Positions 1,345 through 61,820 of a stretch of 64,000 nt of DNA are shown here, piece after piece. Position 1 is the first letter of the stretch. The number at the start of each line of letters is the position of its first letter. Made by a program: the position numbers and the translations under genes. Below the pieces are notes generated by a model. The model saw only the letters and a list, made by a program, of their open reading frames with translations. It was not told where the DNA came from and made no database searches. This stretch comes from a virus, in the IMG/VR virus record IMGVR_UViG_3300033489_000009, positions 769 through 64,768 of that record, one strand, 5' to 3'.

Positions 1345-3917
1345 ATGAACCTCACCCGAGGCCTGGCACCGAGATCCCGCTCAGCGCACATGTACCTAGC
1401 GCAGTCACAGTTATGCACGAGGACGCCGGCCGCGAAGTACTCCGGCTGGTCAGCCACCGTCAGGTTGAACACCGGCACAAGCCCGGGCTGAACGCAGACG
1501 CTGAGCACATGTACGTCCGCAGCATTCCTTGCGGCTGTAGCGGTTGGTAGTGAACTCGGTACCGCACTGGGGGCAGGTCCTCTGCTCGTCGTCCACGCCG
1601 CTCGCGTAACGCCATGCCGTCTTGCACCTATTCGAGCAGAACCGCTCACGACCGTGCTGGTTGGTGGTCTCGAAGTCGGCCCCGCACTGCTCGCAGGTGC
1701 TGGTTCGCACGGGTCCATGCCCGAAGCGTTCCACCTCAGCGTGCCAGCGGTGCCAGTCCAGACCCTCAGGCGAGCTGTGCCATGCCGCAGCGAGCGGACG
1801 AATCCGCTCGAGATGCGCGCGAGCCTCGGGACTTTGCGATCGGACCCGCGCCTGTTCCCGGTGAACTTCCTTGTGCTCGGCGATCGTGACGCAGGCCAGG
1901 TTCCCCGGGTCATTGTTGAGGGGGTCGAAGTCGAGGTGATGGACCTCGCAACCCTCGGGTATCGGTCCATGCTTGGCCTTCCATATCTCCTGGTGAAGGT
2001 GCCCGACTCCCCGCTTCCTGTCGGCGATTCCAGGAGTGAAGTAGTTGCGGTTGGCCTGATATGGAGAGTCTGGGTAGCGGCGGAATGTGATTCCGGCGAA
2101 CTTAACTCGCTCGACGTTGGACACCCCATAAGTCTATCCCCATATCCCAATGAATCGAGCCGCGACCAGCCTCTTTCGTTCACCCAGACAGGATGATCCC
2201 CTGTACCGACAAGCACTTCCCCGGTCGACAGCAGGACCTGCACCACTTCCGCAGCGGGCATGGTCATGCCACTCGCAACTACAGGTCGTGGTCCGGCCCT
2301 GGTAAGCACCAGGTGCCATGGCCGGATCTGCTCGATCGGGACGTCTCCGGCAGTGGTGGCGACCAGCGTCCCGGCAATGAGGCACCCATGGTCGTCCACC
2401 TTCAACGGTGTCTCCTTCGTCTCCCTCGGCACCGCCGCCGTCGCCCCGGCCGGATCCCACACGTAGCCGGGCAGCTCCTCCGCGAAGCATGTCGGCTTCT
2501 TCGCCTCCTCCAGCTCCGGGTCCAGTTCCACCAGTGAGTCCCGGAGGATGTACAGGCGGGGCTTCCCGTCACCCGCTGGCCGGAGGCGGGCCTGCATGGC
2601 CTGGATGCCGTCCTTGACCGTCTTGTGCGCCGCGGAGGTGGACATGCCCAGGTGCCGTTCCAGGGTCGCCCTGTCTTCCGCGTCATGGTCGCAGATCACC
2701 GCGGTGGGGCGGGGCTCCAACCAGACGCCGTCGCCGTCGCGCATCTGGGCGAGCATGGTCCGGGCGTGGTCCTCGACGAGCCGTCTCGTGTGGTAGATCT
2801 CCCGGTACATCCATAGCCGGCCGTCGCCGTCCTCGGCGTACCACTGTGCGGTGAAGGGGTTCGTGAAGCCGAAGTCCACCACGATCCACCTGGTCCAGTC
2901 GGCTGGGATTTCGAACCGGTCGACGAGGTGGATCGCAGGGTCGTACCCGTCGTAGATGATCCCCTCGGCGGCGACCCACTTCCCTCCCTCCAGGCGGGCC
3001 TTCCGGACGCCGGTGAGCTTCGCCAACTTCGCCAGGTACGCCGCCCCAGCGAGGGTGGGTTTGCCGGTGGCGGGCGCGATGAGGGTCGGGTTGTCCGAGT
3101 GCCGGCAGTGGAGCATCCGGGTGTCGCCCCGCTGGCAGCGGACGTTCAGCCAGTGGGTGGGCTTGTCCGGGTTGGTGTCGGCGAGGAGCTGCTGGACCGG
3201 GGTACGGGCGTTCCGGAGCCGGGTGGTGAGCGCCTCCCAGTTGTCGGTGGTCAGCTCGATCGCTTCTTGGACGTACACCACGTCGTAATCGGAGGACATC
3301 ACCCTGGTCGATTTGTCCATTCCGCCGAGGTTGATGGCGGACCCGTTGGCGTACCGGTAGGCGGCGGCCTCCTGCTGGGATCCGCCGTAGAAGTGGACCA
3401 GTCCCGCTTCGAGGGCTTCGGGGATGACCTTCTCCCGCCAGGTGACCAGGGCCGTGGAGCCGAGGGAGGTGAGTGTCTTGCGGATGACCAGGCCGCGCAT
3501 CCCGGGCCAGGCGAGGGCGAGGAGGTTCAGCAGCTCGAGGGCCGCCCGGGACTTGCCGGTGCCCGCGGGACCGGACAGGAGGACCTCGTCCTGGGCGGTG
3601 GTGAACACGTCGCGGGCCGCGCCGTGCGGGGCGTACAGGTGGACGCCGGGCACGGTCGGATGCTCGTCGGTGCTGGCCTGGTCGGGGTGGACGGGCAGGT
3701 GCAGGGCGGTCGGCAGGTGCACGCCGGGGATCAGGTAGGTGACGGTGCTCGCGTCGGGCCCGGTCAGGACGAGCCGGTCGCCGGCCGGGACGGTCGCGGT
3801 CCAGCCGGCCTTGCGCCACAGCCGGTGCCCGGAGTGGTCGAGGTCGTCCGCGGCGTTCCTGGCAGCTTGGGCGACCAGCCTGGCCACCCACCCGCCCGGG
3901 GCCGCGGTCGTTGTCAC
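1341..3917 (-). CDS. terL: Terminase large subunit, intein-containing
   Basis: Walker A GPAGTGKS, Walker B YVQEA, coupling motif DTNP, nuclease motifs VDFGFTNP and DDHG/CD..RY; interrupted by an intein. Confidence 0.95.
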   Translation of the reverse strand: MTTTAAPGGWVARLVAQAARNAADDLDHSGHRLWRKAGWTATVPAGDRLVLTGPDASTVTYLIPGVHLPTALHLPVHPDQASTDEHPTVPGVHLYAPHGAARDVFTTAQDEVLLSGPAGTGKSRAALELLNLLALAWPGMRGLVIRKTLTSLGSTALVTWREKVIPEALEAGLVHFYGGSQQEAAAYRYANGSAINLGGMDKSTRVMSSDYDVVYVQEAIELTTDNWEALTTRLRNARTPVQQLLADTNPDKPTHWLNVRCQRGDTRMLHCRHSDNPTLIAPATGKPTLAGAAYLAKLAKLTGVRKARLEGGKWVAAEGIIYDGYDPAIHLVDRFEIPADWTRWIVVDFGFTNPFTAQWYAEDGDGRLWMYREIYHTRRLVEDHARTMLAQMRDGDGVWLEPRPTAVICDHDAEDRATLERHLGMSTSAAHKTVKDGIQAMQARLRPAGDGKPRLYILRDSLVELDPELEEAKKPTCFAEELPGYVWDPAGATAAVPRETKETPLKVDDHGCLIAGTLVATTAGDVPIEQIRPWHLVLTRAGPRPVVASGMTMPAAEVVQVLLSTGEVLVGTGDHPVWVNERGWSRLDSLGYGDRLMGCPTSSELSSPESHSAATQTLHIRPTATTSLLESPTGSGESGTFTRRYGRPSMDRYPRVARSITSTSTPSTMTRGTWPASRSPSTRKFTGNRRGSDRKVPRLARISSGFVRSLRHGTARLRVWTGTAGTLRWNASGMDPCEPAPASSAGPTSRPPTSTVVSGSARIGARRHGVTRAAWTTSRGPAPSAVPSSLPTATAARNAADVHVLSVCVQPGLVPVFNLTVADQPEYFAAGVLVHNCDCARYMCAERDLGARPRVRFI
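1410..2384 (-). mobile_element. Intein (325 aa) in the TerL nuclease domain
   Basis: Begins CLIAGTLVAT (Cys1 codon 2382-2384), has a block B-like TGDHPVW, and ends FNLTVADQPEYFAAGVLVHN followed by Cys+1. The exteins rejoin as KVDDHG-CDCARY. Confidence 0.93.
1450..2124 (-). CDS. HNH endonuclease with C-terminal zinc fingers, nested in an alternative frame inside the intein
   Basis: HLHQEIWKAKHGPIPEGCEVHHLDFDPLNNDPGNLACVTIAEHKEVH (HNH) plus CEQC, FCSNRC, CPQC and CCGRTC motifs; same strand as the intein, different frame. Confidence 0.88.
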   Translation of the reverse strand: MSNVERVKFAGITFRRYPDSPYQANRNYFTPGIADRKRGVGHLHQEIWKAKHGPIPEGCEVHHLDFDPLNNDPGNLACVTIAEHKEVHREQARVRSQSPEARAHLERIRPLAAAWHSSPEGLDWHRWHAEVERFGHGPVRTSTCEQCGADFETTNQHGRERFCSNRCKTAWRYASGVDDEQRTCPQCGTEFTTNRYSRKECCGRTCAQRLRSARACAGVQPDGG

Positions 3918-4597
3918 AGTCGTGCTGCCGGGTCGATCTGCTCGGCGAGAGCGCGCAACTGGACGGGGATCAGGGCCTGTGCCCGTTCCGCCTGTTCGGG
4001 GGTGAGGTCAAGGTCGGCCAGGACGGCGCGGAGGGTTTCCCCGACCATCGCCCCGACCTGCTCGGCGAGGGTGACACGGCGTTCCTCGATGCCCATCCGG
4101 TGGGCGATCTCGCAGGCTTTCAGGAGCCGGTCCTGCGCCTTGCCGAGGAGTTCGACCCACAGGTTCGGGTGGGCTTCCTCGGTGATGTCGGTGCCCGGGT
4201 TCTCGGTGGCCTGCTTGCTGACCTGCTTCGTGGTGCCCCAGATCACGTCGTCCGCAGCGAGCTGGCGGACCTGGATCCGATACCAGGCGACCTCCCCCGC
4301 CAGGTGCGCGATCTCGCCAAGGACGACCTCAGCCGGGTCGAGGCCGTCGATGGGCAGGCCGAGGGTGGTGGCGGCGGCGCGCGCGGCGAGCTCGGCCCTC
4401 GCTCGCTCGGCCGCGTTCTTGGACCGGCGGGTCGCGCCGCCGTGGACCCGGCACGCCTTCCCGCCCGCCTCCGGGTAGGCCAGGCACGGGGCGGGCGGGC
4501 TGGTGCCTTTCCGGTGGCCGCTGCAGGTCGGCACACCAGGGGCGGTCTCCCGCTCGTGACGGTGCCCGCAGCGGCGGCACTTCCGGACGGGACTCAT
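3914..4597 (-). CDS. terS: Terminase small subunit (putative)
   Basis: Directly upstream of TerL with a 4-nt overlap; N-terminal Cys cluster and CRVHGGAT (HGG-type) motif; helical C-terminus. Confidence 0.75.
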   Translation of the reverse strand: MSPVRKCRRCGHRHERETAPGVPTCSGHRKGTSPPAPCLAYPEAGGKACRVHGGATRRSKNAAERARAELAARAAATTLGLPIDGLDPAEVVLGEIAHLAGEVAWYRIQVRQLAADDVIWGTTKQVSKQATENPGTDITEEAHPNLWVELLGKAQDRLLKACEIAHRMGIEERRVTLAEQVGAMVGETLRAVLADLDLTPEQAERAQALIPVQLRALAEQIDPAARL

Positions 4598-4635
4598 GAG
4601 GGTCCGGTCTCCCGGGGGGACTCATGAGGTTCCGG
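4589..4635. repeat. 19-bp direct repeat GGGACTCATGAGG(G/T)TCCGG x2 at the terS start
   Basis: Copies at 4589-4607 and 4617-4635 with one mismatch; each contains the palindrome CTCATGAG. Confidence 0.8.
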
Positions 4636-4825
4636 GGTTGGGCGGGGGTCGAAGTGGACGGTGCACCCTTGGTGCATCTGCCAGGTCATGCCGGAGTCGC
4701 CCCGGTGCCAGACGCTGTCGGGGTGGCGTTCGAGGGTGCACATCTCCCGGTAGCCGGTATCGAGGTCGGGGCTGATGTGGCCCCCGCGATGCCGAGACTG
4801 TCGAGGCGGACGGCCGGTAGGGCGG

Positions 4826-6188
4826 TCATCGGGCCCACCTCGGCATATACCCGGCCCGACGTGCCCGGGACCGATCCCGGTGAGCGATGGTGGCCTGGGC
4901 GCCGCCGTCGAGGATCAGGACGGGCCGCAGGCCGGCCGGGATGGACCGGTCGATGCGGTCGAACTCCTCGGCACAGAGGGGCTGGGGGTAGGAGATGACC
5001 AGGACGTCGCCGTGCCTGCGGCGGGCCCCCGCTGGCGGGTCTGCTCGGGTGGTCACTGAGCCTGACCCCGTTTCGGAGTGGCCACGATCGGCGCCCGAGA
5101 CAAGTAGCCGCGCTGCAGCTGTTCATCCAGGGCGTTGCGCAGAGCCTGGACCTGGTCCCGACTCAGGAAGAGTTCGACCTCCGGTGCGTCGTCGGAGATG
5201 GCGGACATGATCCGGAGCAGGCCGCACATGCTGCTGCTGGCCAGGTCGATCCAGCCGCCCCGCGATGTCGAGCTCAGGGACTCGGCTGACCCGCTCGCCC
5301 AATGCCTTGTGCCGTCCCTGCTGTCGGTGAACGGCGCATCGTCGTCGTCGAGCGTCATGAAACTGCTCCAGATGCTCACGCTGGTGGTCCTTCCTTGGGT
5401 CGACTGATTCCGGATCGACGGGCCCGGCGGATTTCCCGCCATGTCGCTCGAGCCCAGCCGTAGGGCGGACATCGCGCGATCCAGTGCGCTCCACAGGGGC
5501 AGCGCCAGACGGCCCCTCGGGGAGCGACCGACTTGATGGGCAGCTCGCAGCGGTGCCGGGGCCTGTCGGCGTTTCCGATGATCGTCACGATGCCGGTCCT
5601 TTGGGTCGGGTCCAGCCGGGGCGTTCGCTCGTGTGGCGGGGCCGGGCACGGTCGTCCTGGGGGTGCCGGGCGGCCCAGATGGTCATCTGGTCGAGGAGGG
5701 CGGCCACGAGGTCCCAGGTGGGGGAGAGGCGGTGGGGTGGGTTGACGCCTGCGGTGCGTGCGGCCCGGTTCCTAGTGGGTTGGTCCCAGGTGGTGATGTC
5801 GGTGGGTGGGATGGCGTGGTGCCAGCACCAGTGGGCTAGTTGGCGGGCTTTCGTCTCGCGGTTGGTGTCCGCCTGGCTCGTCCGCGTGTAATCCACGTCA
5901 CGTCCGTGTGGCATTGGTCGCCTCCCGCCACCGGTAGCAGCCGCACACCACCGACAGGCCACACGCCCCACCACGCGGATGCCGGGCCCGAGGATGCCCA
6001 CACACGCACTTCGTCGGTGACCGCGGCGGAGGAGGGACCACCGCAGGGGACCCCGACCCCGGGCACACCGCCGCAGTGGCTGGCGGTGCACCGTGACTGG
6101 CCATCGTCCCGTCCAACTTCACCGCCATCACCCGCCCGCAGACCGGGCACGGCCGGCGCGGATGCGGCCCACCGATCACGACCTGCAC
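4826..6188 (-). CDS. Cluster of about five small coupled hypothetical ORFs (4826-5056, 5053-5379, 5376-5588, 5585-~5914, 5898-6188)
   Basis: Successive short minus-strand ORFs, mostly with 4-nt overlaps; several have CxxC or CxC motifs. Confidence 0.55.
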
Positions 6189-7045
6189 CCAGGGATAACC
6201 CGGTCCAGCCAGTCCCGGAACTCAGTGCTCGCGTCCTCCAGGACGGCGATGCACATGTCCTCACTCTCATCGTCCGGGTGAACAGGGTCCAGCTGGTAGA
6301 CGTACTCGCCGTCCCGGTACCACCGGGGGGGCGGGGCCAGCCGTTCCGCCTCGTCGCCGGTGCGGTCCCGGTCATCCCGGAGCATCCGCACAATCCGCAG
6401 CGCCTCACCCACCGCACCGGTCAGGTCCGACGTCGCGTCCTCATCGACCCCGACCAGATCAGCCAGCCCCGACGCGAGGCGGACCCGCTCCGCCTCGGCT
6501 TGGGCGGCGGCCTTGGTGTCCCCTTCCTGGATCAGGTCGATGGCTTCCGAGAGTCCGGCCTGGAGCCGGGCAAGATCCCGGCTGGCCTGCTCCAGCCGCC
6601 CCACATGGTCCATGCCGTAGCAGGCGTGCGCCCGAGCGGCGGCGTCCAGGAGGTGCCCGACCGCCCGGAGGCGGTGCTCGTCGTCGAGGTCGAGGAACTT
6701 GGCGACCCACTGAGCTGGTGCCAGGGCGTCCCCTGACCCGCTGGCCTGCTCGTAGGTCTCGTCGAAGATGCCGGGCTTGCACGGGTAGAACTCGCCCTGG
6801 ACGCCCTTGATGATGAAGTCGCCGGGGCTGGCGAGCATCGTCCCTTCCAGGGTGTCGATCCGGACCCCTGGCTGCCCGGTGAGTGTCGCCTGGCCGCCGC
6901 ACCAGGCGGCGACGCTGCGGGCCGTGTCCCACAGGTCGGCGTGTCCGATCCTCCCGAGCATCTCCGGGACGCGCATCGTCTCGATGGTGACTGGCTTCTT
7001 CCGGTACCGGACCGGCTCCGGGCCGCTCTCTGTGTTGCTGGTCAC
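6176..7045 (-). CDS. Phage protein with conserved N-terminal KKP..TLEG..GD.IIKGV.GE.YPCKP.IF..TYE domain and a coiled-coil C-terminus
   Basis: YRKKPVTIE...IDTLEGTMLASPGDFIIKGVQGEFYPCKPGIFDETYE is a widespread phage domain of unknown function. Confidence 0.75.
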   Translation of the reverse strand: MTSNTESGPEPVRYRKKPVTIETMRVPEMLGRIGHADLWDTARSVAAWCGGQATLTGQPGVRIDTLEGTMLASPGDFIIKGVQGEFYPCKPGIFDETYEQASGSGDALAPAQWVAKFLDLDDEHRLRAVGHLLDAAARAHACYGMDHVGRLEQASRDLARLQAGLSEAIDLIQEGDTKAAAQAEAERVRLASGLADLVGVDEDATSDLTGAVGEALRIVRMLRDDRDRTGDEAERLAPPPRWYRDGEYVYQLDPVHPDDESEDMCIAVLEDASTEFRDWLDRVIPGCRS

Positions 7046-7389
7046 CGTGCTGCCTCCATCGTGGTCTCGGACCGGACAGGTGCCACGTCCGGTGGGGTGC
7101 GGGCCAGGACAGCCCGGGCCAGGGCCAGATCCTGCGCGAACGACTGCTCAACCTGCTCGGGCGTGGCGTCGGGGTCGGTGACCGCGAGCAGGGCGTTGGA
7201 GCGCATCAGCAGCCCCCGGACCGCAGCCGTCAGGGCGGTCGACCCGTCCAGGAGCACGGGGTCACCGGGCGGGCAGGTCAGGGCCCGGTCCAGGGCGGTG
7301 ACCGCGTCGATCAGGGTCCGGGCCGGGTCGAGGTGGACGTAGGGGCGGCCGTTGCGGGGCCCTGCACGGTGACGGGCCGACCGGGTCAC
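7042..7389 (-). CDS. Hypothetical protein
   Basis: ORF 7042..7467; probable start near 7389, overlapping the upstream stop. Confidence 0.5.
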   Translation of the reverse strand: MTRSARHRAGPRNGRPYVHLDPARTLIDAVTALDRALTCPPGDPVLLDGSTALTAAVRGLLMRSNALLAVTDPDATPEQVEQSFAQDLALARAVLARTPPDVAPVRSETTMEAAR

Positions 7390-7799
7390 CACGGCACGTC
7401 CTCGCCCACGGCGCCGTCCACCTGCTCGTCCCGGCCGGGGCTGGTCTGGAGCGCGGGTAGCTCCCACCGCTGCACCGGGGCGGGCTGGCAGGTGCGCGCG
7501 ACGAGGCGGGCTGTCGCCTCGCTGGTCGGGGTGATCGCGTACACCGACCCTGGGCTGTAGTACTGGCTCGCTGTGGTCGGGCCGTCAGGGCTGGGGATGT
7601 CCAGGCGCAGGAAGCTCGCTCCCGCGATCTGGGCTTCGGTGAGCCAGCCCGCGAGGCGCCGGTGGCCGAGGAGCTCCAGGATCGTCCAGCCGGCGAACGG
7701 GGCGTCCGTGGGTTCGGGCAGTTGGGCTGCGACAGCGGCGTAGGCGACCTGGCCGGGGTCGACGGCCACGGTGGGGCCGGTGGTCTCTTCGGTGGTCAT
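7386..7799 (-). CDS. Conserved phage hypothetical protein
   Basis: ILELLGHRRLAG...E..IAG..FLRLDIP...YSPGSVYAITP motif recalled from phage proteins; GGAGG RBS upstream. Confidence 0.65.
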   Translation of the reverse strand: MTTEETTGPTVAVDPGQVAYAAVAAQLPEPTDAPFAGWTILELLGHRRLAGWLTEAQIAGASFLRLDIPSPDGPTTASQYYSPGSVYAITPTSEATARLVARTCQPAPVQRWELPALQTSPGRDEQVDGAVGEDVPW

Positions 7800-14093: not shown

Positions 14094-14411
14094 TTAGTCG
14101 CCGTCGCCGCCGCCGTAGCCGCCGCCGTCGCCGCCGCCGTCGCCGTCGCCGTCGCCGTAGCCGCCGCCGTAGCCGCCGCCGTCGCCGTCGCCGTCGCCGT
14201 AGCCGCCGCCGTAGCCGCCGCCGCCGCCGTAGCCGCCGCCGTCGCCGTCGCCGTCGCCGTAGCCGCCGCCGTAGCCGCCGCCGTCGCCGTCGCCGTCGCC
14301 GTAGCCGCCGCCGTCGCCGTAGCCGTCGCCGCCGCCGCCGTAGCCGCCGTCGCCGCCGCCGTAGCCGATCGATGCGTGCGCCTCCTCCAGCACGGCGCAG
14401 GACGCGCTCAC
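14094..14411 (-). CDS. Gly/Asp/Tyr low-complexity repeat protein (105 aa)
   Basis: GYGDGDGDGGGYGGG-type tandem repeats; GTG start overlaps the upstream stop. Confidence 0.7.
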   Translation of the reverse strand: MSASCAVLEEAHASIGYGGGDGGYGGGGDGYGDGGGYGDGDGDGGGYGGGYGDGDGDGGGYGGGGGYGGGYGDGDGDGGGYGGGYGDGDGDGGGDGGGYGGGDGD

Positions 14412-14776: not shown

Positions 14777-15532
14777 TCAGGCGGGCCGGTCTCGGGAGCG
14801 GGCGGCGGCGTATCGGGTTCGGAGTTCGCCGGGGCCGACCCGCTGCTCGCCGTCCGCAGACGGATCGGGGGCGGCGGTGGGCCAGAACGCGGGCTGGGTT
14901 GCGACCGGCCGCGCAGCGGCCTGGTCAGGTGGCGGAGAAGGATCCGGCCTGGAGGCTGTGGATGACGCAGGTGACGTACTCACCTGAGGTGATTGGTCTT
15001 GTGTGGTGGGAGTTCTGTTGGAGTAGTTCTTTAGCCCCCCATCCCGTGGGGGGCTAAGCCCCCCATCTGGTGACGGGCTGCGCCCCCCGTTGAGTGGGGG
15101 GCAACTTTCTGCGGTGTCACCCGGTTGCCCCCGACCGGATGGGGGGCAACTCCCGTTATCCACAACCTGTTGCCCACCAACAGACGGGGGGCAACTCCCC
15201 TCCTCGGAATCCGGGTTGCCCCCGACCGGATGGGGGGCAACTCCCGCGAAGAGCCTCAGCCGGTACTCCGCGTTCCGACCGTTCCCGGCACGCCGCTTCA
15301 CGACGATCGCGCCAGACCGCACCAGATGGCCGACCGCGTTCTCGACACGCCTGAACCCGGGCTCGGTATGCGGGGCGCCCAGCACGTCGGCCAGTGCTTC
15401 CCGGCCGCCGTAGTAGACCAGCTCCGGGTCGTCGTCGCGGCAGAGGTTCGCCATGAAGGCGAGCAGACGCCAGGACCGGTCAGGCAACTGTGCCCAGCGA
15501 GCGCATACGGCAGCCACGTTGGCCCTTCCCAT
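14777..15532 (-). CDS. Replication initiator (N-terminal winged HTH, internal iteron repeats)
   Basis: RLLAFMA...YYGGREALAD.LG...VENAVGHLVRSGAIVV...G..AEYRL; repeat region encodes SCPP units. Confidence 0.75.
   Translation of the reverse strand: MGRANVAAVCARWAQLPDRSWRLLAFMANLCRDDDPELVYYGGREALADVLGAPHTEPGFRRVENAVGHLVRSGAIVVKRRAGNGRNAEYRLRLFAGVAPHPVGGNPDSEEGSCPPSVGGQQVVDNGSCPPSGRGQPGDTAESCPPLNGGRSPSPDGGLSPPRDGGLKNYSNRTPTTQDQSPQVSTSPASSTASRPDPSPPPDQAAARPVATQPAFWPTAAPDPSADGEQRVGPGELRTRYAAARSRDRPA
15033..15245. repeat. Putative replication origin: palindromic iterons with a DnaA box
   Basis: GGGGGGCAACT at 15096, 15141, 15186 and 15232 (45-46 bp period); identical 32-mer GGTTGCCCCCGACCGGATGGGGGGCAACTCCC at 15123 and 15214; TTATCCACA at 15156-15164. 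Confidence 0.8.
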
Positions 15533-24031: not shown

Positions 24032-25045
24032 CTACCTCCAATCCCCTCGATCGTCGACCCGGACGGATGATGTCGCGGCACGCCGGGACCCCTTCACGAA
24101 TATCAGCGTGTGCTGGTGGCCTCGGCCGAGGCTCCGGCCGGTGCGCATCGCGTGATAGCCGCGCATCGCAGACGTCCCGCACGGTGGGATCAGGACCGCT
24201 GCCGACACCAGATGAAGCCCGGCATCCTCGAATGCGCGGATCGCCATGCCACGCAGATCGATCAGACGCCCATCCCGGGCCCGCACGTCTCCGATGACGA
24301 GGCCCGCGAACCTGTCGGCGCGCAGAGCGCACGCAGCGCCGTCGACGATCCGTCTCAGTGCTCGCTCATACTGATCCACGGTCATGGTCGACAGGTCGGC
24401 CGGATCGTCCGAGTACCTCTCCGTCCAGAGGTAGGGGGGGCATGTCCACACGAAGTCGACGCTGCCCGGATCCAGGGAATCGACCCACCGCGCTGCGTCG
24501 GCGTGCGCCCACTCCGCGGATGTCAGCGAGGGGATCCCTCGCATCGCCAGCTCGGCGCAATGGGCGCGGTTGGCCTCGACCTGGGCTGCCGAAAGATCAC
24601 ACCCGATGTACCGGCGGCCGATGACCGCGGCGACGACTCCCCTGGTGGGGCCCCCGGCGAACGGGTCCAGGATCAGCCACCCCGGCGCCGTCCACCACCG
24701 ATACGCCAGCTCGCACAAGACGGGATCGAATTGGCTGGTCCCGGTGCCGAACGCTCCGCCACCAGCCATGGAAGCCGACTGGCGGTACTGATCGGCCTCG
24801 AACTCGGCGGCCGTCAGATCCCTCCCTGCGGCATCCTTAGCCGCCTGAAACTGCTGGTAATAGCTCGGGTCACGGCTAGTCGCGGTCGACAGCAGGAGAC
24901 GCCCCGGTCGCCCGACACTCGGATCGAGCCCGATGGCAAGCCACTCCTTCCGGCGCGCCTGCCACTTCCCGCGCCGCTGATCGAGCAGGTCGAACGGCGG
25001 CAGGCCGGACAGCCGATCAGTGGCCGAAGGGATCGCAGCGCTCAC
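24032..25045 (-). CDS. SAM-dependent amino-methyltransferase (probably DNA m6A/m4C)
   Basis: TSQFDPVLCE..YRWW, ILDPFAGGPTRG, YIGCDLS and WTCPPY...Y motifs. Confidence 0.85.
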   Translation of the reverse strand: MSAAIPSATDRLSGLPPFDLLDQRRGKWQARRKEWLAIGLDPSVGRPGRLLLSTATSRDPSYYQQFQAAKDAAGRDLTAAEFEADQYRQSASMAGGGAFGTGTSQFDPVLCELAYRWWTAPGWLILDPFAGGPTRGVVAAVIGRRYIGCDLSAAQVEANRAHCAELAMRGIPSLTSAEWAHADAARWVDSLDPGSVDFVWTCPPYLWTERYSDDPADLSTMTVDQYERALRRIVDGAACALRADRFAGLVIGDVRARDGRLIDLRGMAIRAFEDAGLHLVSAAVLIPPCGTSAMRGYHAMRTGRSLGRGHQHTLIFVKGSRRAATSSVRVDDRGDWR

Positions 25046-25767
25046 CTAGGGGTCCTGTCGAGGCGGTCCCGCACGGAGCGGACCTCCGGGTAGTAGGTGT
25101 CCTCCCAGTCGCCGCGTCCATACTCGGCGCCTCTCGACCCACCCAGAGAGGACACCCGCAGCCGATCTCGAGGTATGACCCCACCGAATGACATTGCATA
25201 GGCGGGATGAAGTGGAAGGTCGTGCAGTGCCGCGTACGCCCACACGTCGGCAGACCTCCACCTGATGATCGGCCTGCATGATGTCGCCGTTACTACCCCG
25301 TGGACCGCAGCTGACATCCCGCGCGCCCGCGACTCGTCGGCCCGGAGCCCGGTGATTCGCCTCGGGCTCTCATGCTCCTCCAGCCACCGGTACGGGTTCG
25401 GGCTGGCGATCCCGTACTCACGGTAGGGGGTTGGCCACCGCGCGAGGTAGGCGTCGGCGACGGACTGGCAGTCCGGGTTGCGTAGCCTGTCCGTCCCTTC
25501 CCTGGCCCCGTATGTGACGTATATCAGCTCTATGTCTAGGTCGCGGGCGAGGTGAGCGACCGTGACCGAGTCGCGACCCCAGGAGACTCCGATGTGACAG
25601 GGACCGGCGGCGGCAAACCCTGCGATGCAGGTATGGGCTGCCTCGGCGAGCCGGTCCAGCCTGCGAGCGATGTGGGACGCCCGGACGGTGGCCGCGTCGT
25701 ATCGGGCCAGCCTGGACCACACGGCCCGGTCGTCGCCGGTGAGCCGCGGCGAGTCGATGAGAGCCAT
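25042..25767 (-). CDS. cysH: CysH-like (PAPS reductase family) protein of type IV-B systems
   Basis: PP-loop SWGRDS, ITGLRADESRAR, RPIIRW..ADVWAY...HDLPLHPAY. Confidence 0.88.
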   Translation of the reverse strand: MALIDSPRLTGDDRAVWSRLARYDAATVRASHIARRLDRLAEAAHTCIAGFAAAGPCHIGVSWGRDSVTVAHLARDLDIELIYVTYGAREGTDRLRNPDCQSVADAYLARWPTPYREYGIASPNPYRWLEEHESPRRITGLRADESRARGMSAAVHGVVTATSCRPIIRWRSADVWAYAALHDLPLHPAYAMSFGGVIPRDRLRVSSLGGSRGAEYGRGDWEDTYYPEVRSVRDRLDRTPR

Positions 25768-26492
25768 CAGACGGCCATCCCAGGGGTGACGGGCATCTTG
25801 CGGGTGCCATGCCAGTAGGGGGCCCTGACTGCGCCCGGGACGCCGCGCCCGACGGGGGCCGGGAAGTCGCGGTTCATCCATGCGTCCCGGTCGGCGGGGC
25901 CACCCTCCTGGACCTCGACCTTGAGGACGCGGCCGTTCCCGTGCCCGGTGACCCGGCCGAGGGCCCGGAGCCTGGTCAGGAGGCTGGCGGTGGCGTCCTG
26001 GTCGCCGAGCGCCCACCACGTGACATGGGTGACGAGACGCCCCGGGTAGGTGATGTTGCGGGCCTTGTGCGCGCCGAGCCCATCATGATGCCGGGCATCG
26101 GTCGTGTATCGGGCGTACTCCTGGGTGGGTGGCTTCTTGCGGATCTCGACGGCGGTGGTCCCGTGCTCGGTAAGGACGGCCCGTGAGCAGCACCAGCCCC
26201 ACACGGTGCCGTCGGCGGCAAGCAGGGCCGGATTAGTGCCGGCCGGTGCGGGTCTGGTCCAGGTGGCCAGCGGGACCCTGAAGTCCGCGCACCGGTCCAC
26301 GGTGAGCGGCGGCAGCACAACCCCGGACTCGCGGGCAGCCAGGTAGGCGCAGTACGCGAGCGGCCCGTCCAGATGCATCGGGTCCGCGACAGTGATCACC
26401 GGGTCGGCGATCGTGGCGACCACCCGGAACGGCCGCCACGCCGGGGACGCCACCGTGTCGGCGACATCCCCGACGCGCACGACCCTGCTCAC
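25767..26492 (-). CDS. csf3: Type IV Cas5-like subunit Csf3
   Basis: HLDGPL, W..S.A, and a C-terminal G-loop LGRVTGHGNGRV...W...R..P...RAPYWH. Confidence 0.85.
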   Translation of the reverse strand: MSRVVRVGDVADTVASPAWRPFRVVATIADPVITVADPMHLDGPLAYCAYLAARESGVVLPPLTVDRCADFRVPLATWTRPAPAGTNPALLAADGTVWGWCCSRAVLTEHGTTAVEIRKKPPTQEYARYTTDARHHDGLGAHKARNITYPGRLVTHVTWWALGDQDATASLLTRLRALGRVTGHGNGRVLKVEVQEGGPADRDAWMNRDFPAPVGRGVPGAVRAPYWHGTRKMPVTPGMAV

Positions 26493-27406
26493 GCCCGGAC
26501 CTGCAGCAGCGCCCGGATCGCGTCAGCGTGACCACTCAGGTGGTCGACGTACCGGGCCGCCGCCGCGGACACGTCGCCGGTGAGCTCGGAGGTGTCGGAG
26601 GACACGACAGCGCACCGGCCGAAACCCTGCGCGCCCCTCGCTCCCAGCCGCCACACGCCGCCCGCAGTGACCCGGGTCAGGGCCGCACACAGGGCGTCGA
26701 CCTCGGCAGGGACCGCCGCGTCGACACCGACCTCGAACGCCCACAGGGACCCCGCCTGGATCACCTGCATGTCGTAGATCATCTGCGTTGATGCGGGAGC
26801 TGCATCCCCGAACATGGCCTCCGCGACCAGCCGGTCCACCGAAGAGCCGGTCACGTCGTGGCGGGTCCCGAACTCTTCCCCCATCCAGTCGACCGCGCGC
26901 ATCCCGGCGGACGGGTCACGCATCACGGTGGCCGGGATCCGCCACTCATTCTCCCGGCAGGCCAGGTGCGCGTTGGATACGCGGAGGCTGCCGCGGACGA
27001 TGTCCGACCCCAGCGAGTAGCCGAGCAGCGGCAGGGACGGCAGGAGCGTGTGCCGCTCCGCCATCGCCCGCAGGTCGGTTTGTGCGCCGGTCTCCGTCAA
27101 TGCCCCACCGGACCACAGGAGGTCGACGATCGCCTTCGGGAGACCGTTGTCGGGGACCTGCAGGGTGTCGACGGTGATCCAGGCGAGGGCATCCCGGATG
27201 GCGTGCCGGATCGAGTTGCCGGACACGAACGGGGTGCGGCGACGCTCCCCGTCCGGGCCGACGGAGTCCTGCATGCGCACCAGGGCGGTGTTACCGGCGG
27301 TGCCTGCGCCGTGGTGGATCGGGTCGAGGGCGCGGAGGGTGACGGGGATGCGGGCCGTGACGGTCCGCTGGTAGGTGCCGGCCCCCGCCTCGATGGTGGC
27401 AGTCAT
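26489..27406 (-). CDS. csf2: Type IV Cas7-like backbone Csf2
   Basis: LDPIHHG..TAGNT..R, PFVSGNSIRH.IR, LWSGGAL, LPLLG, QMIY..Q....G and LGARGAQGFGRC G-loop. Confidence 0.9.
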   Translation of the reverse strand: MTATIEAGAGTYQRTVTARIPVTLRALDPIHHGAGTAGNTALVRMQDSVGPDGERRRTPFVSGNSIRHAIRDALAWITVDTLQVPDNGLPKAIVDLLWSGGALTETGAQTDLRAMAERHTLLPSLPLLGYSLGSDIVRGSLRVSNAHLACRENEWRIPATVMRDPSAGMRAVDWMGEEFGTRHDVTGSSVDRLVAEAMFGDAAPASTQMIYDMQVIQAGSLWAFEVGVDAAVPAEVDALCAALTRVTAGGVWRLGARGAQGFGRCAVVSSDTSELTGDVSAAAARYVDHLSGHADAIRALLQVRA

Positions 27407-27852
27407 CAGAACATGGCTCCTGTGTCGTCGGTGGCTGCGGGCGCTGCGGATGTCTTGGTGGCCTTGTCGGCGCGCTTGTCGGCGCGGCGGAGACGCACCA
27501 TCGCCGCGATGTAGACGGCATCCCTTTCTGCGATCCGGCGCCACCGGGCGAACGTGACCGGGTCGGCCAGTGCGGCCTCGATCCCGGCGACCGTCCGGCC
27601 TGTGTGCTCAGGGAGTGTCGCCACCTGCAGTTTCCCGGACATGACGGTGACCATGTCCCGGATGCTGGTGGCGCGCGCTGCCGCAGCGGTCAATGCCGTG
27701 GTGGCGCGCGGCCACCAGTGGGCGACACCGATCGTCGCGACGTCGGCGGCGCCGAGCATCGCGTCGAGCATGTCCTCGGCGACGACAGCGAGAACGTCGT
27801 CGGGGACGTTGGGTGGGAGCCGGTCAGGCCGCGTAGCGGTCGGCGAGGTCAC
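27406..27852 (-). CDS. cas11: Type IV-B small subunit Cas11
   Basis: 148 aa all-helical protein (HWWPR..TAL..AAARA) between csf1 and csf2, the canonical IV-B position. Confidence 0.7.
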   Translation of the reverse strand: MTSPTATRPDRLPPNVPDDVLAVVAEDMLDAMLGAADVATIGVAHWWPRATTALTAAAARATSIRDMVTVMSGKLQVATLPEHTGRTVAGIEAALADPVTFARWRRIAERDAVYIAAMVRLRRADKRADKATKTSAAPAATDDTGAMF

Positions 27853-28561
27853 GGATGGTCTCCTTCGTGGTCATGTGCAGCGCGAGCTGCAGTAGAGGTG
27901 AGTTGGCGTGTGGTGCGACCGTCGGCGACCAGCGCCGCCATGCGGTCAGCCCGTCCCTGGTCAGGGCCGGGACGGTTGGGGTGACGGCGTGGATACTGTC
28001 CGGGTTGTGTCCAGCGAGGCGTAGCGCGGCGCATGCCCCGATCAGAGCCCCGTACTCGGTGGGGGTGGCGTCGACGACGCATCCCTCGATCCGGGCCAGG
28101 ACCAGGGCCGCGCCGGGCGCGTTGACGGGCGTGTACGGGAGGAGGTGTTTCTGGCCTGAGACGGCGATCGTGACCGCCCATACGTCGTCCGGGGGGTCCG
28201 TGAGTGCGGCGATGATCGCGGACTGGTCCTTGCGGTTGCAGAGGTGTAGCCGGCCATCGGATGGGTATGGGGCGGATGGTGCCCCCGTCGGGAGGATGGT
28301 GGCGGCGGTGGTGAGGATCGACCACATCCGTAGTGTCTGCGGCGGTTTCCCGGCGAGGGCCCACGCGCACGGCTCGCACACCGTCGACAGGTCCGGGCGG
28401 GCCGCGGTGAGGATGTCGAAGTTCTTGCCGAGCGCATCCCGCGCCCGTAGGTGCCGGTGGTGGGTCACCCCGCACACCACGCACCCGGCGTCGGCGGCGA
28501 TCGCCTTCGGGTGGGATGGCCCACCGGCTGCGTCCCACGCCATCCGGACCGCCGTCAGCAT
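27824..28561 (-). CDS. csf1: Type IV large subunit Csf1 (Cas8-like)
   Basis: CVVCG...LG.NF...CEPCAWAL.GKPP.TLRMWS and W.V.IA.SGQKH.LPY..VN motifs. Confidence 0.85.
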   Translation of the reverse strand: MLTAVRMAWDAAGGPSHPKAIAADAGCVVCGVTHHRHLRARDALGKNFDILTAARPDLSTVCEPCAWALAGKPPQTLRMWSILTTAATILPTGAPSAPYPSDGRLHLCNRKDQSAIIAALTDPPDDVWAVTIAVSGQKHLLPYTPVNAPGAALVLARIEGCVVDATPTEYGALIGACAALRLAGHNPDSIHAVTPTVPALTRDGLTAWRRWSPTVAPHANSPLLQLALHMTTKETIRDLADRYAA

Positions 28562-29238
28562 GCCGGCACCTGGGCTGGCGCTGGGCGGGCGAGGATGAGA
28601 CCGCACCCGAAACTCTTGTTCCGGCCTACACCCTCGGCCATGAGCGCGTGCATGGCCGGCTCGTCGCAGACCCGGCCCTCGAATCGCAGCAGTGTGTGAT
28701 TCGAATGCTGGACCCGGCCCTCCTTCACCCTGCGGCCGGTCAGGTGCCATGCCCCGGCCATGGTCACGTCGAGCCCGTCGAGGATCCCCGCGAGCCTGCC
28801 CGCCAGCACCTCCACCATCGCCTCCGGCGGGCGGACCGTATGCCGCCGTTTCTCCGACCGGGCGGAGAGTTTCCCCGGGATCTGCCCTGCCGCGACCAGC
28901 TCGCATTCCCGGACCCACTGACTGTGCGACTGGCCTGACTGGCCTGAGTCCATCACGACGGCCCCCGATATCAGGGCCCCGGCGGTCGGCCACCAGTACG
29001 GGCTGTGGGTGGTGTTGATCGCCCACCCTCGGGGCCAGTCCTCACGGGTGATGGGCCGGTCGTGGCGGACGATCAGGACCCTCGGCTTAGGTATGGCCCA
29101 CAGGACGGGCCGGGGCTGCTCCCCAGCGAGGGCGGCCTGGGTGACCAGGTCGTGGAGATGCTTGACGTCCGCCGACCGGGGATCCCGGTCGGTGATCTGC
29201 ACCGTGGTGAGTATCAGTGGGCTTCCTATCGTGTCCAT
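28555..29238 (-). CDS. cas6e: Cas6 (Cas6e-like) RAMP endoribonuclease
   Basis: N-terminal D..HLH, VLW, and C-terminal RFEGRV.D..AM..LM.EGVGRNKSFGCGLI G-loop. Confidence 0.85.
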   Translation of the reverse strand: MDTIGSPLILTTVQITDRDPRSADVKHLHDLVTQAALAGEQPRPVLWAIPKPRVLIVRHDRPITREDWPRGWAINTTHSPYWWPTAGALISGAVVMDSGQSGQSHSQWVRECELVAAGQIPGKLSARSEKRRHTVRPPEAMVEVLAGRLAGILDGLDVTMAGAWHLTGRRVKEGRVQHSNHTLLRFEGRVCDEPAMHALMAEGVGRNKSFGCGLILARPAPAQVPAC

Positions 29239-29240
29239 GG

Positions 29241-29519
29241 TCAGTTCCCCTCATGGCCGTGCTGGTGTCGGTCGCGCCACGCCTCTAGCTCCACTACGCG
29301 GTCCTCGATGGACGGCGGAGGGACAGGTGCTGCCCGCTGGCCCCGGTACGCCTCGACGTCTCCGCGGCGGTACCGGCGGTGGCCGCGGCCGCGCGCGCCC
29401 CCGGGCGTCTGCGAGTAGGGCAGCTCACGTCTGGGGATGCGCCAGACGGTGACTGGATCGACCTGTAGCAGCTTGGCGACTTCACCGGTGCTGAGGGTCT
29501 CGTCGTCGGTGGCGGGCAT
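29241..29519 (-). CDS. MerR-like/excisionase-type (BldC-like) HTH regulator heading the Cas operon
   Basis: LSTGEVAKLLQVDPVTVWR...TPGG...HRRYRRGDVEAY; AAGGAGAGG RBS. Confidence 0.85.
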   Translation of the reverse strand: MPATDDETLSTGEVAKLLQVDPVTVWRIPRRELPYSQTPGGARGRGHRRYRRGDVEAYRGQRAAPVPPPSIEDRVVELEAWRDRHQHGHEGN

Positions 29520-29537
29520 CCCTCTCCTTGGGATCAG

Positions 29538-29635
29538 TGCAAGGTGTGTGCTGGTCGCAAGGGTAGAGGGAGCGGCATTCACGTCGACATCATCGCGCGC
29601 CCCGTGCAAGCCTTGCAAGGGGTGAAAGGTGTGTG
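29538..29635. promoter_or_regulatory. Divergent control region with repeated (T/C)GCAAG motifs
   Basis: TGCAAGG at 29538, CGCAAGG at 29556, inverted repeat TGCAAG-C-CTTGCA at 29605-17 flanked by CCCC/GGGG; AAGGTGTGTG at 29541 and 29626. Confidence 0.6.
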
Positions 29636-29683
29636 TCAGGATCGTCAGGTGACTTCTCCCGACCGCCTGGCTGGTGGTGCCGC

Positions 29684-30420
29684 GTGACCGTCCCCGCCCT
29701 GCAGCTCGCCGACGTGTGCGAGTCGTGCCGGCAGTGCCCCGGCACCCGGTGGATCCTCGGAGGCGACGGTGAGTCGCCGTTCCTGGTCTGCCAGGGCTGC
29801 GCACCGACCCCCCTGTCAGCCTCCGTCCCGCCATCCCCCAGCACGGTTCCCCCGGCCGTGCCGGCGGGGCGGAGGCCCACCAACCAGACCGCCCGGGCCG
29901 TCGCGATCCAGGCCGCCGGGATCAGCACCGTCGGCGTCAGCCTTTGGGCGCTGACCCGCATCGCCGGCGGCGGCACGCTCCTCGTCCTCGGCGCGGAGGC
30001 CAGCGTCCTTTGCCTCGGCTACGCCGCCCGGGCGTTCGGTGGTGCCAGGTGATCCGGGTCATCGCCGCGGCCGCGGTGTTCGTCGCCGGCTGGCTGGTCC
30101 TCGCGACGCAGGGGGAGGCGATCGCGGCGGCCCTTGAGCGGATCGTGCTGGTGCTGGTCGCAGGCGCCGCTGCCCTCACCGTGATCGTCGTCGGTGGCGT
30201 GGTCCTGGTCCGCCGTCTGGTCAGGCCGAGCGAACAGCCGGCACCGCAGGTCCCGGATCACTCCCAGGAGCTCCCAGCGCTGGGAACTGACTGCGCTCGT
30301 GGCTGCGGCCGACCGGGGACCGTGCTGCTCGCCGGGGCCGGTTCCCTGCCGTTTCTGGTCTGCCAGCGGTGCGCCGACGTGCACACCGGCCGCGTCCAGC
30401 CCCGCGGAGCGCGGCCGTGA
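29684..30420 (+). CDS. Two coupled membrane proteins with a shared Zn motif (29684-30052, 30049-30420)
   Basis: Both have hydrophobic helices and a C..C...PFLVCQ.CA motif; GTGA overlap. Confidence 0.6.

Positions 30421-60561: not shown

Positions 60562-61820
<1,259 letters not shown>

Follow-up and report, generated by a model that had tools for sequence, protein, structure and literature searches.

A Cas6e-family gene heads an array-less type IV-B operon in a clade of actinophages

Of the CRISPR-Cas subtypes, type IV-B is the most reduced and the one understood least; it has no array and no nuclease, and to our knowledge no RNA partner is known for it. The sole purified IV-B complex bound heterogeneous RNA (PMC7937560), and the published definitions of the subtype exclude Cas6 (PMC8175902, PMC7038947). 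IV-B loci are known on actinobacterial plasmids and sometimes in prophages of Actinobacteria (PMC7038947), they are also known in viruses (PMC10848311), and the rare loci that bear a Cas6 were counted, without analysis, as 'only 12 instances' (Pinilla-Redondo et al. 2020, PMC7038947). In this work we describe a gene for a Cas6e-like protein in a 64,000-nucleotide stretch of viral DNA (here called the window; positions 769 to 64,768 of IMG/VR record IMGVR_UViG_3300033489_000009). What is new is an actinophage clade in which a Cas6e-family enzyme with a conserved catalytic histidine heads a IV-B operon and has co-diverged with Csf2, in a complete genome that is free of arrays.

The nearest counterparts of the protein are the Cas6e enzymes of type I-E Cascade. 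There the substitution His20Ala abolishes the RNase activity of Cas6e, and CRISPR RNA (crRNA) is stabilised in the complex by Cas6e, which stays on the hairpin (PMC4499155). The Cas6 and Cas6e enzymes of type IV have His/Tyr active sites and are retained in the IV-A complex (PMC8175902). The gene of the window and the parts of it that are compared with these enzymes are as follows.

28555..29238, minus strand: cas6e-like gene, 227 amino acids (aa); PF08798 36.6 bits, PADLOC Cas6e 8.5e-10, Z 18.4 to CasE
29152..29169, minus strand: codons for D24-V-K-H27-L-H29 (DVKHLH), located by hhalign to CasE and by conservation in 41 relatives
29152-29154, minus strand: codon of H29, the putative catalytic His, aligned with CasE His20
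28594..28632, minus strand: glycine-rich loop GVGRNKSFGCGLI, residues 203-215, located by conservation in 41 relatives and by alignment with known G-loops

The listing of open reading frames (ORFs) and their translation gave a frame of 227 aa with an ATG start that spans exactly 28555-29238 on the minus strand. Its GC content at third codon positions (GC3) is 0.86, as in the real genes of this 70% GC sequence. The protein matched PF08798, the CasE/Cse3 family, with an E-value of 7.5e-9 and 36.6 bits against a gathering cut-off (GA) of 25, and the match takes in the whole protein (residues 22-219 on profile positions 19-223 of 223). Among the PADLOC models, Cas6e gave 8.5e-10 and typeIV_Cas6 3.4e-9. 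The match is far above chance, and the ORF encodes a Cas6e-family protein. It did not pass the I-E equivalog model TIGR01907 (20.4 vs 45.2 bits, C-terminus only), and it has neither the gene neighbourhood nor the array of a I-E system: its neighbours are csf genes, with no array and no cas1 or cas2.

The fold was modelled with AlphaFold2 using nine homologues, and the model reached a predicted local distance difference test score (pLDDT) of 85.8 and a predicted template modelling score (pTM) of 0.77. Its top Foldseek matches in the PDB were structures of RNA-bound T. thermophilus Cse3 (2Y8Y, 2Y9H, 3QRQ; E about 3e-11, template modelling score (TM) 0.63-0.71), and E. coli CasE was matched as well. 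With VIA-align, Z was 18.4 to E. coli CasE in Cascade (4TVX_M; 188 residues, 3.4 A) and 18.2 to T. thermophilus Cse3 (2Y8Y), against about 10 for Cas6b and P. furiosus Cas6 and 7.4 for the type IV-A Csf5 (6NJY); it is therefore specifically a Cas6e-type protein, with the double ferredoxin-like fold of that family. With the I-E enzymes compared (CasE, 4TVX and 4DZD; Cse3, 2Y8Y and 3QRQ) it shares a fold of two RNA recognition motifs over 184-190 aligned residues at Z 18, a C-terminal G-loop, a His at the position of the catalytic His20, a long basic beta-hairpin and a full-length profile match. It differs from them in its low identity to the solved Cas6e structures, only 17-20%, in its score below the I-E equivalog cut-off and in a Lys in place of the Tyr at position -3.

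Sequence alignment led to the same family. A profile of 41 sequences, with relatives at 19-88% identity, was aligned by hhalign with CasE of E. coli K-12 (NC_000913) from end to end, with a probability of 98.6% and an E-value of 1e-15. The profile of this size was needed, and with the single protein or a 9-sequence profile the sequence-only alignment to CasE reached the G-loop only. In the full alignment ADVKHLHD is paired with RDLYQLHQ of CasE, which places His29 on CasE His20. The original prediction had put a His of DVKHLH at the catalytic position, and this stands for His29; His27 is variable across the 41 sequences, and Asp24 and His29 are each at least 90% conserved. The loop GVGRNKSFGCGLI, which had been taken for a Cas6 G-loop, aligns with its counterparts in E. 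coli CasE and T. fusca Cse3, and G203, G211, G213 and L214 are invariant in the 41 relatives, so this assignment was upheld. It is clear that the protein shares the architecture of the metal-independent pre-crRNA endoribonuclease in I-E Cascade and has kept the catalytic His and the G-loop. As far as sequence and model can tell, the Cas6e-like nuclease predicted at 28555-29238 is therefore borne out by PF08798, by a Z of about 18 to CasE/Cse3 and by the full-length hhalign alignment.

The cas6e-like gene belongs to one tightly translationally coupled operon on the minus strand, in the order HTH_17, cas6e-like, csf1, cas11, csf2, csf3, cysH-like and methyltransferase, as established by reading the junctions and by matches in PADLOC, Pfam, PHROGs and the PDB. 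Its other genes are listed in the order of transcription.

29241..29519, minus strand: HTH_17 (MerR/excisionase-type) regulator, 92 aa, first gene of the operon; PF12728 E 2.9e-8, GC3 0.82, ribosome-binding site GGAGAGGG and ATG
27824..28543, minus strand: csf1 (type IV Cas8-like large subunit), 239 aa; PADLOC typeIV_Cas8 Csf1_0_IV 7.9e-20, GC3 0.86, CxxC...CxxC motif
27406..27852, minus strand: cas11 (type IV small subunit), 148 aa; PADLOC typeIV_Cas11 6.2e-11
26489..27406, minus strand: csf2 (type IV Cas7), 305 aa; PADLOC typeIV_Cas7 6.1e-79, IV-B Csf2 of PDB 7JHY 7e-8
25767..26492, minus strand: csf3 (type IV Cas5), 241 aa; PADLOC typeIV_Cas5 Csf3_0_IV 7e-29
25042..25767, minus strand: cysH-like (PAPS-reductase family) accessory gene, 241 aa; PF01507 2.9e-8, phrog_2302 3.6e-20
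24032..25045, minus strand: N6/N4-type DNA methyltransferase, 337 aa; PF01555 1.1e-6, phrog_12517 6.7e-76, PADLOC MTase_II 9.6e-14

The stop codon of the HTH_17 gene lies 2 nt ahead of the cas6 ATG, the csf2 start overlaps the cas11 stop (TGATG), the cysH-like start overlaps the csf3 stop, and the methyltransferase is coupled to cysH by GTGA. In place of csf1 the mechanical ORF list offers a 229-aa frame at 27849-28538 as the gene after cas6; this was rejected as a wrong frame with a GC3 of 0.57 and no matches, the true csf1 starting at the ATG at 28543. The Cas6e-like gene is thus part of the module and not a stray.

By published definitions the locus is a type IV-B module, apart from its added Cas6. 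It has the IV-B signature of csf2 together with csf1, csf3 and cas11 (PADLOC; PDB 7JHY) and an adjacent cysH-like gene. No array, adaptation module or DinG was found, and an assignment exists for each gene in the operon, the RecD and Cas10-HD families not having been searched. Where IV-B loci should lack a Cas6 or other crRNA-processing enzyme, a Cas6e-family gene is here the first Cas gene of the operon. The canonical IV-B system, that of the Mycobacterium sp. JS623 megaplasmid (PDB 7JHY, PMC7937560), has the same four Csf/Cas11 genes in the canonical order next to a cysH-like gene, is likewise without array, adaptation genes and helicase, and likewise lies on an actinobacterial mobile element. 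In contrast to the present locus, it has no Cas6 and sits on a plasmid, whereas here a Cas6e-family gene leads the operon on a tailed phage and a methyltransferase is coupled to cysH. The 12 published Cas6-bearing loci, which may overlap with the present ones, also combine IV-B with a Cas6 and no array; they were only counted, whereas here the enzyme is placed in the Cas6e family, its active site is seen to be conserved and a whole clade of phages proves to carry it stably.

The other systems with which the locus may be compared are more distant. Its neighbours are those of type IV and not the cse1, cse2, cas7e, cas5e, cas3, cas1 and cas2 of I-E Cascade, and no I-E array is present. In type IV-A3 (PMC7038947, PMC8175902) a Cas6e-type enzyme has likewise been recruited into a type IV effector module, but IV-A3 has DinG and an array and lacks Cas11 and cysH. 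The present locus carries none of the hallmarks of IV-A, IV-A3 included: there was no DEAD_2 (DinG) match and no array, and cas11 is present. Among cultured phages, only the Skermania phage SPI1 (KR011061.1; our locus L020) had a relative of Csf2 in the collection searched, with 28% identity. Its Orf40-43 (3852-7485) correspond to csf1, cas11, csf2 and csf3 and are followed by the 239-aa Orf44, all of them annotated as hypothetical. It differs from the window in having no Cas6, its upstream Orf39 not being matched by the Cas6 profile. SPI1, an isolated phage, carries an unannotated, Cas6-less canonical IV-B module and could serve as a comparator.

The record from which the window was taken is a genome of 64,944 bp with a 127-bp terminal repeat, rated 100% complete; the window covers bases 769-64768 and is short of it by 944 bp only. 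It contains genes for a large terminase, a portal, a prohead protease and a tape measure protein, as well as recombinases and an FtsK/TraB-like gene. The carrier is a complete temperate-type tailed phage of a soil actinomycete, in agreement with the phage origin supposed before.

No CRISPR array, mini-array or solitary repeat was detected by repeat finders on the window or in a scan of the circularised genome, and Rfam gave no CRISPR-DR match at either the gathering or the E-value threshold. Hairpins of the I-E-like form CCCCGC...GCGGGG were no commoner than expected by chance, and family searches of the genome found no Cas1, Cas2 or DinG. None of the repeats that were seen is CRISPR-like: they are coding repeats of short period, the hairpin cluster at 15033-15246 and a single pair within a gene. 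The pair, at 60995-61082 (24-31 nt, 96% identical, 57 nt apart), was considered as a mini-array and rejected; because it lies in the prohead protease gene and 57 nt equal 19 codons, it is probably a coding repeat. The original prediction of an enzyme with no cognate array was therefore correct, and the array that might have lain in the remainder of the element is excluded, since the genome is complete and array-free.

We also noticed a long tract of coding repeats at 14095-14331, in a minus-strand ORF, with periods of 9-12 nt, GCC/GTC units and about 23 copies. It encodes a low-complexity segment rich in Gly and Asp.

Relatives of the Cas6e-like protein are rare. Only 8 close homologues were found in an index of 5.8 billion proteins, and an exhaustive profile search returned 249 cluster representatives at E<1e-3, 40 at E<1e-10 and 4 at E<1e-30. 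No relative was found in GenBank phages or PLSDB plasmids by tblastn and megablast, nor in IMG/VR by a pattern scan; the species genomes of GTDB gave a single weak C-terminal match, in a metagenome-assembled genome of Dehalococcoidia, and a scan of JGI metagenomes only one known contig and one weak match. In every relative with readable downstream DNA the same module is headed by the Cas6e-like gene, at Cas6 identities of 24-79%. These are the loci that we designate L002, L003, L010, L011/L012, L013/L014, L015/L016, L017 and L019, and the 99.9-kb uncultivated viral genome (UViG) behind L008; in those other than L019 the Cas6 identities are 24-52%. The order is Cas6e-like gene, a Csf1-sized gene of about 240-310 aa, genes of about 145 aa and about 297 aa, these three read as csf1, cas11 and csf2, then Csf3 and, sometimes after a GerE gene, PAPS_reduct; a methyltransferase also ends the module in L013/L014. 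The loci are phage-like, with RecT, YqaJ, RNase_T, Gp3-like and WhiB neighbours. Arrays were absent by repeat scans from L002-L004, L007, L008, L010, L011, L013 and L015-L017.

At every locus examined cas6 was intact and translationally coupled. Its identity to the window fell from L003 through L002, L010 and L011 to L013 as 52, 47, 42, 30 and 26%, and that of Csf2 as 72, 69, 63, 39 and 40%. Because the Cas6 identities drop in the same order as those of Csf2, the two have diverged together, Cas6 faster. The ratio of nonsynonymous to synonymous substitution rates (dN/dS) of cas6 was about 0.26 for the closest pairs, which indicates purifying selection. Cas6 is thus an old companion of the Csf genes that diverges along with them, and it does not look like a host I-E cas6e acquired recently.

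A Cas6e fold in which the His and the G-loop are conserved, together with purifying selection, coupling within the operon and divergence in step with the Csf genes, argues for a functional subunit of the Csf complex, and not for a stray or decaying gene. We tentatively favour the view, built partly on analogy with Cascade and type IV-A, that the protein is an active subunit which selects a non-CRISPR hairpin RNA of the phage or the host. It would bind a specific stem-loop RNA by its basic beta-hairpin and G-loop, His29 would cleave at the 3' base of the stem, and the protein would then remain bound to the hairpin, in the manner of Cas6e in Cascade and of Cas6/Csf5 in type IV-A. So bound, it may seed or cap a filament of Csf2 and Cas11, with Csf3 and Csf1 at the opposite end, and would thereby decide which RNA is carried by the complex to the CysH-like and methyltransferase partners. 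The RNA itself would be a hairpin transcript of non-CRISPR origin, from phage or host. Since arrays are absent from the phage and its relatives alike, a CRISPR transcript of the phage is not the substrate. That a Cas6e-type enzyme, its active site conserved, has persisted in a IV-B clade over deep divergence implies that a defined hairpin RNA is selected and cut, at least here.

Co-folding of Csf2 with Cas6 gave an ipSAE score of 0.39 against 0.00 for the best control, with runs agreeing on at least 43% of contacts and a partner pLDDT of at least 80. Of 80 solved complexes 58 reached this mark, as did 2 of 110 mismatched pairs, and scores of 0.60 or lower were found in just 7 of the 80 solved complexes and in both mismatches. 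The pass may reflect likeness to solved Cascade structures; we regard it as weak support and do not take it as evidence of binding.

Several points weigh against an active RNA selector. The Tyr that Cas6e has at -3 from the catalytic His is replaced by Lys here, at a position that varies in the clade (41 sequences), so the catalytic efficiency of the protein is uncertain. Searches for hairpins and repeats in the genome and the loci turned up no RNA substrate, and no hairpin in or beside the operons was common to at least 4 of the 8 loci. Two stems in cas11 that are common to the window and L003 were rejected as candidates; they are absent from the other five loci and sit on conserved codons (WWPRA). 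In canonical IV-B the complex forms on heterogeneous RNA with no Cas6 present (PMC7937560), and a selector subunit is therefore not obligatory for IV-B. Finally, the activity of the protein, its binding and its membership of the complex are all things that we infer.

The hairpin cluster at 15033-15246 was also examined as a substrate. It consists of six GC-rich hairpins, three of about 24 nt (AGCCCCCC-7nt-GGGGGGCT), and has elements of about 32-36 nt with a 45-nt period (GTTGCCCCC-loop-GGGGGCAAC); it folds much better than shuffled sequences on the plus strand (z -7.2). The motif GGGGGGCAACT occurs four times in the genome, solely within the cluster, and is absent from all the relatives' loci retrieved, so the cluster was set aside as a Cas6 substrate and kept as a candidate only. 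It lies in or just 3' of a winged helix-turn-helix-type ORF (14777-15532, minus strand), near replication-type genes. Because of this position, and because it is absent from the other loci, an origin or iterons are the more likely identity.

The identity of the RNA would bear on the role of IV-B in phages, be it counter-defence, gene regulation, or guided modification of nucleic acids by CysH and the methyltransferase. Cas6e-bearing IV-B modules offer an experimental handle on the RNA partner of the subtype.

Type I-E systems are common in actinomycetes, and another source of hairpins may be their CRISPR transcripts. The phage enzyme would then cut or hold the repeat hairpins of host I-E transcripts, and the guides would be passed to the phage Csf complex or withheld from host Cascade, with an anti-CRISPR effect. 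We consider this rather doubtful. It would accommodate an apparently active Cas6e-type enzyme, as judged from its sequence, in a phage whose complete genome is array-free, as are its relatives; both the scavenging and the sponging of crRNA have been suggested for IV-B (PMC8175902, PMC7038947). On the other hand, in the only experiment published, I-E crRNAs made by a I-E Cas6 from a I-E array were not enriched in the canonical IV-B ribonucleoprotein, at about 0.12% of reads (PMC7937560), although this test, with the JS623 system, was made on a IV-B lacking Cas6 and does not extend to a clade that has a Cas6e of its own. IV-B also anticorrelates with other CRISPR-Cas systems in its hosts (PMC7038947). 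The phage Cas6 is far from the I-E enzymes by its TIGR01907 score and its identity of 17-20%, and its co-divergence with Csf2 speaks against a recent acquisition from a host. The capture of host crRNA is not favoured because of the age of the Csf partnership, the JS623 crRNA result and the anticorrelation.

In a broader form, the phage Cas6e would be the missing adaptor that loads an array-less IV-B complex with RNAs made elsewhere, in the boldest version with host CRISPR transcripts; this we hold to be unlikely. If it were true, the phage would disarm host immunity or redirect host guides to the CysH-like and methyltransferase machinery, and a host crRNA substrate would amount to a new anti-CRISPR principle. 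It would be a protein-based mirror image of the RNA anti-CRISPRs (Racrs; PMC10651486). These also interfere, from the phage side, with crRNA biogenesis through the partnership of Cas6 and repeat hairpin, but they work the other way round: with Racrs, host Cas6f and Cas7f are trapped by repeat RNAs from the phage, whereas here the phage has the Cas6 and no repeat.

It is also improbable, in our judgement, that the protein is a structural relic, that is, a non-cutting Cas6e-like protein kept as a cap or assembly factor, or the decaying remnant of an array-bearing type IV ancestor. Such a reading would fit the lack of conservation of the Tyr partner of the catalytic His and the finding that Cascade can do without the RNase activity of Cas6e once it is given processed RNA (PMC4499155); canonical IV-B functions with no Cas6 gene, that of the cultured phage SPI1 included. 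However, at least 90% of the 41 sequences, which span 19-88% identity, retain His29 and Asp24, and the G-loop is invariant. This conservation, the dN/dS of 0.26 and a gene intact and coupled at every locus examined speak against decay, and a cap that only binds is still compatible with them.

That the frame could belong to another repeat-associated mysterious protein (RAMP; Cas5- or Cas7-like), or be a chance ORF in GC-rich DNA, might be suggested by the glycine loops common to RAMP proteins and the spurious ORFs common at 70% GC, but this is effectively refuted by the GC3 of 0.86, the full-length PF08798 match, the Z of 18 to Cas6e as opposed to about 10 for other Cas6 families and 7.4 for Csf5, and the presence of csf3 (Cas5) and csf2 (Cas7) as separate genes downstream.

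Some minor features of the operon and its surroundings were also observed. A small GerE/LuxR-type HTH gene was seen in or just after the module at L011 11329-11757, L013 11331-11738, L017 3495-3908 and L003 5083-5412; it may lie between csf3 and cysH or follow either cas6 or cysH, and the window has the HTH_17 gene upstream of cas6. In L004 the Cas6e-like gene is preceded, about 1.3 kb upstream, by a gene for an IS605 OrfB/TnpB protein with a Cas12f-like TNB domain (1208-2413). In the window, repeated CCTTGCAAGG/CTTGCAC-type and CACACACCTT motifs, which are likely to be operator sites, occur in the leader of the operon (29520-29690), between the HTH gene and a divergent region.

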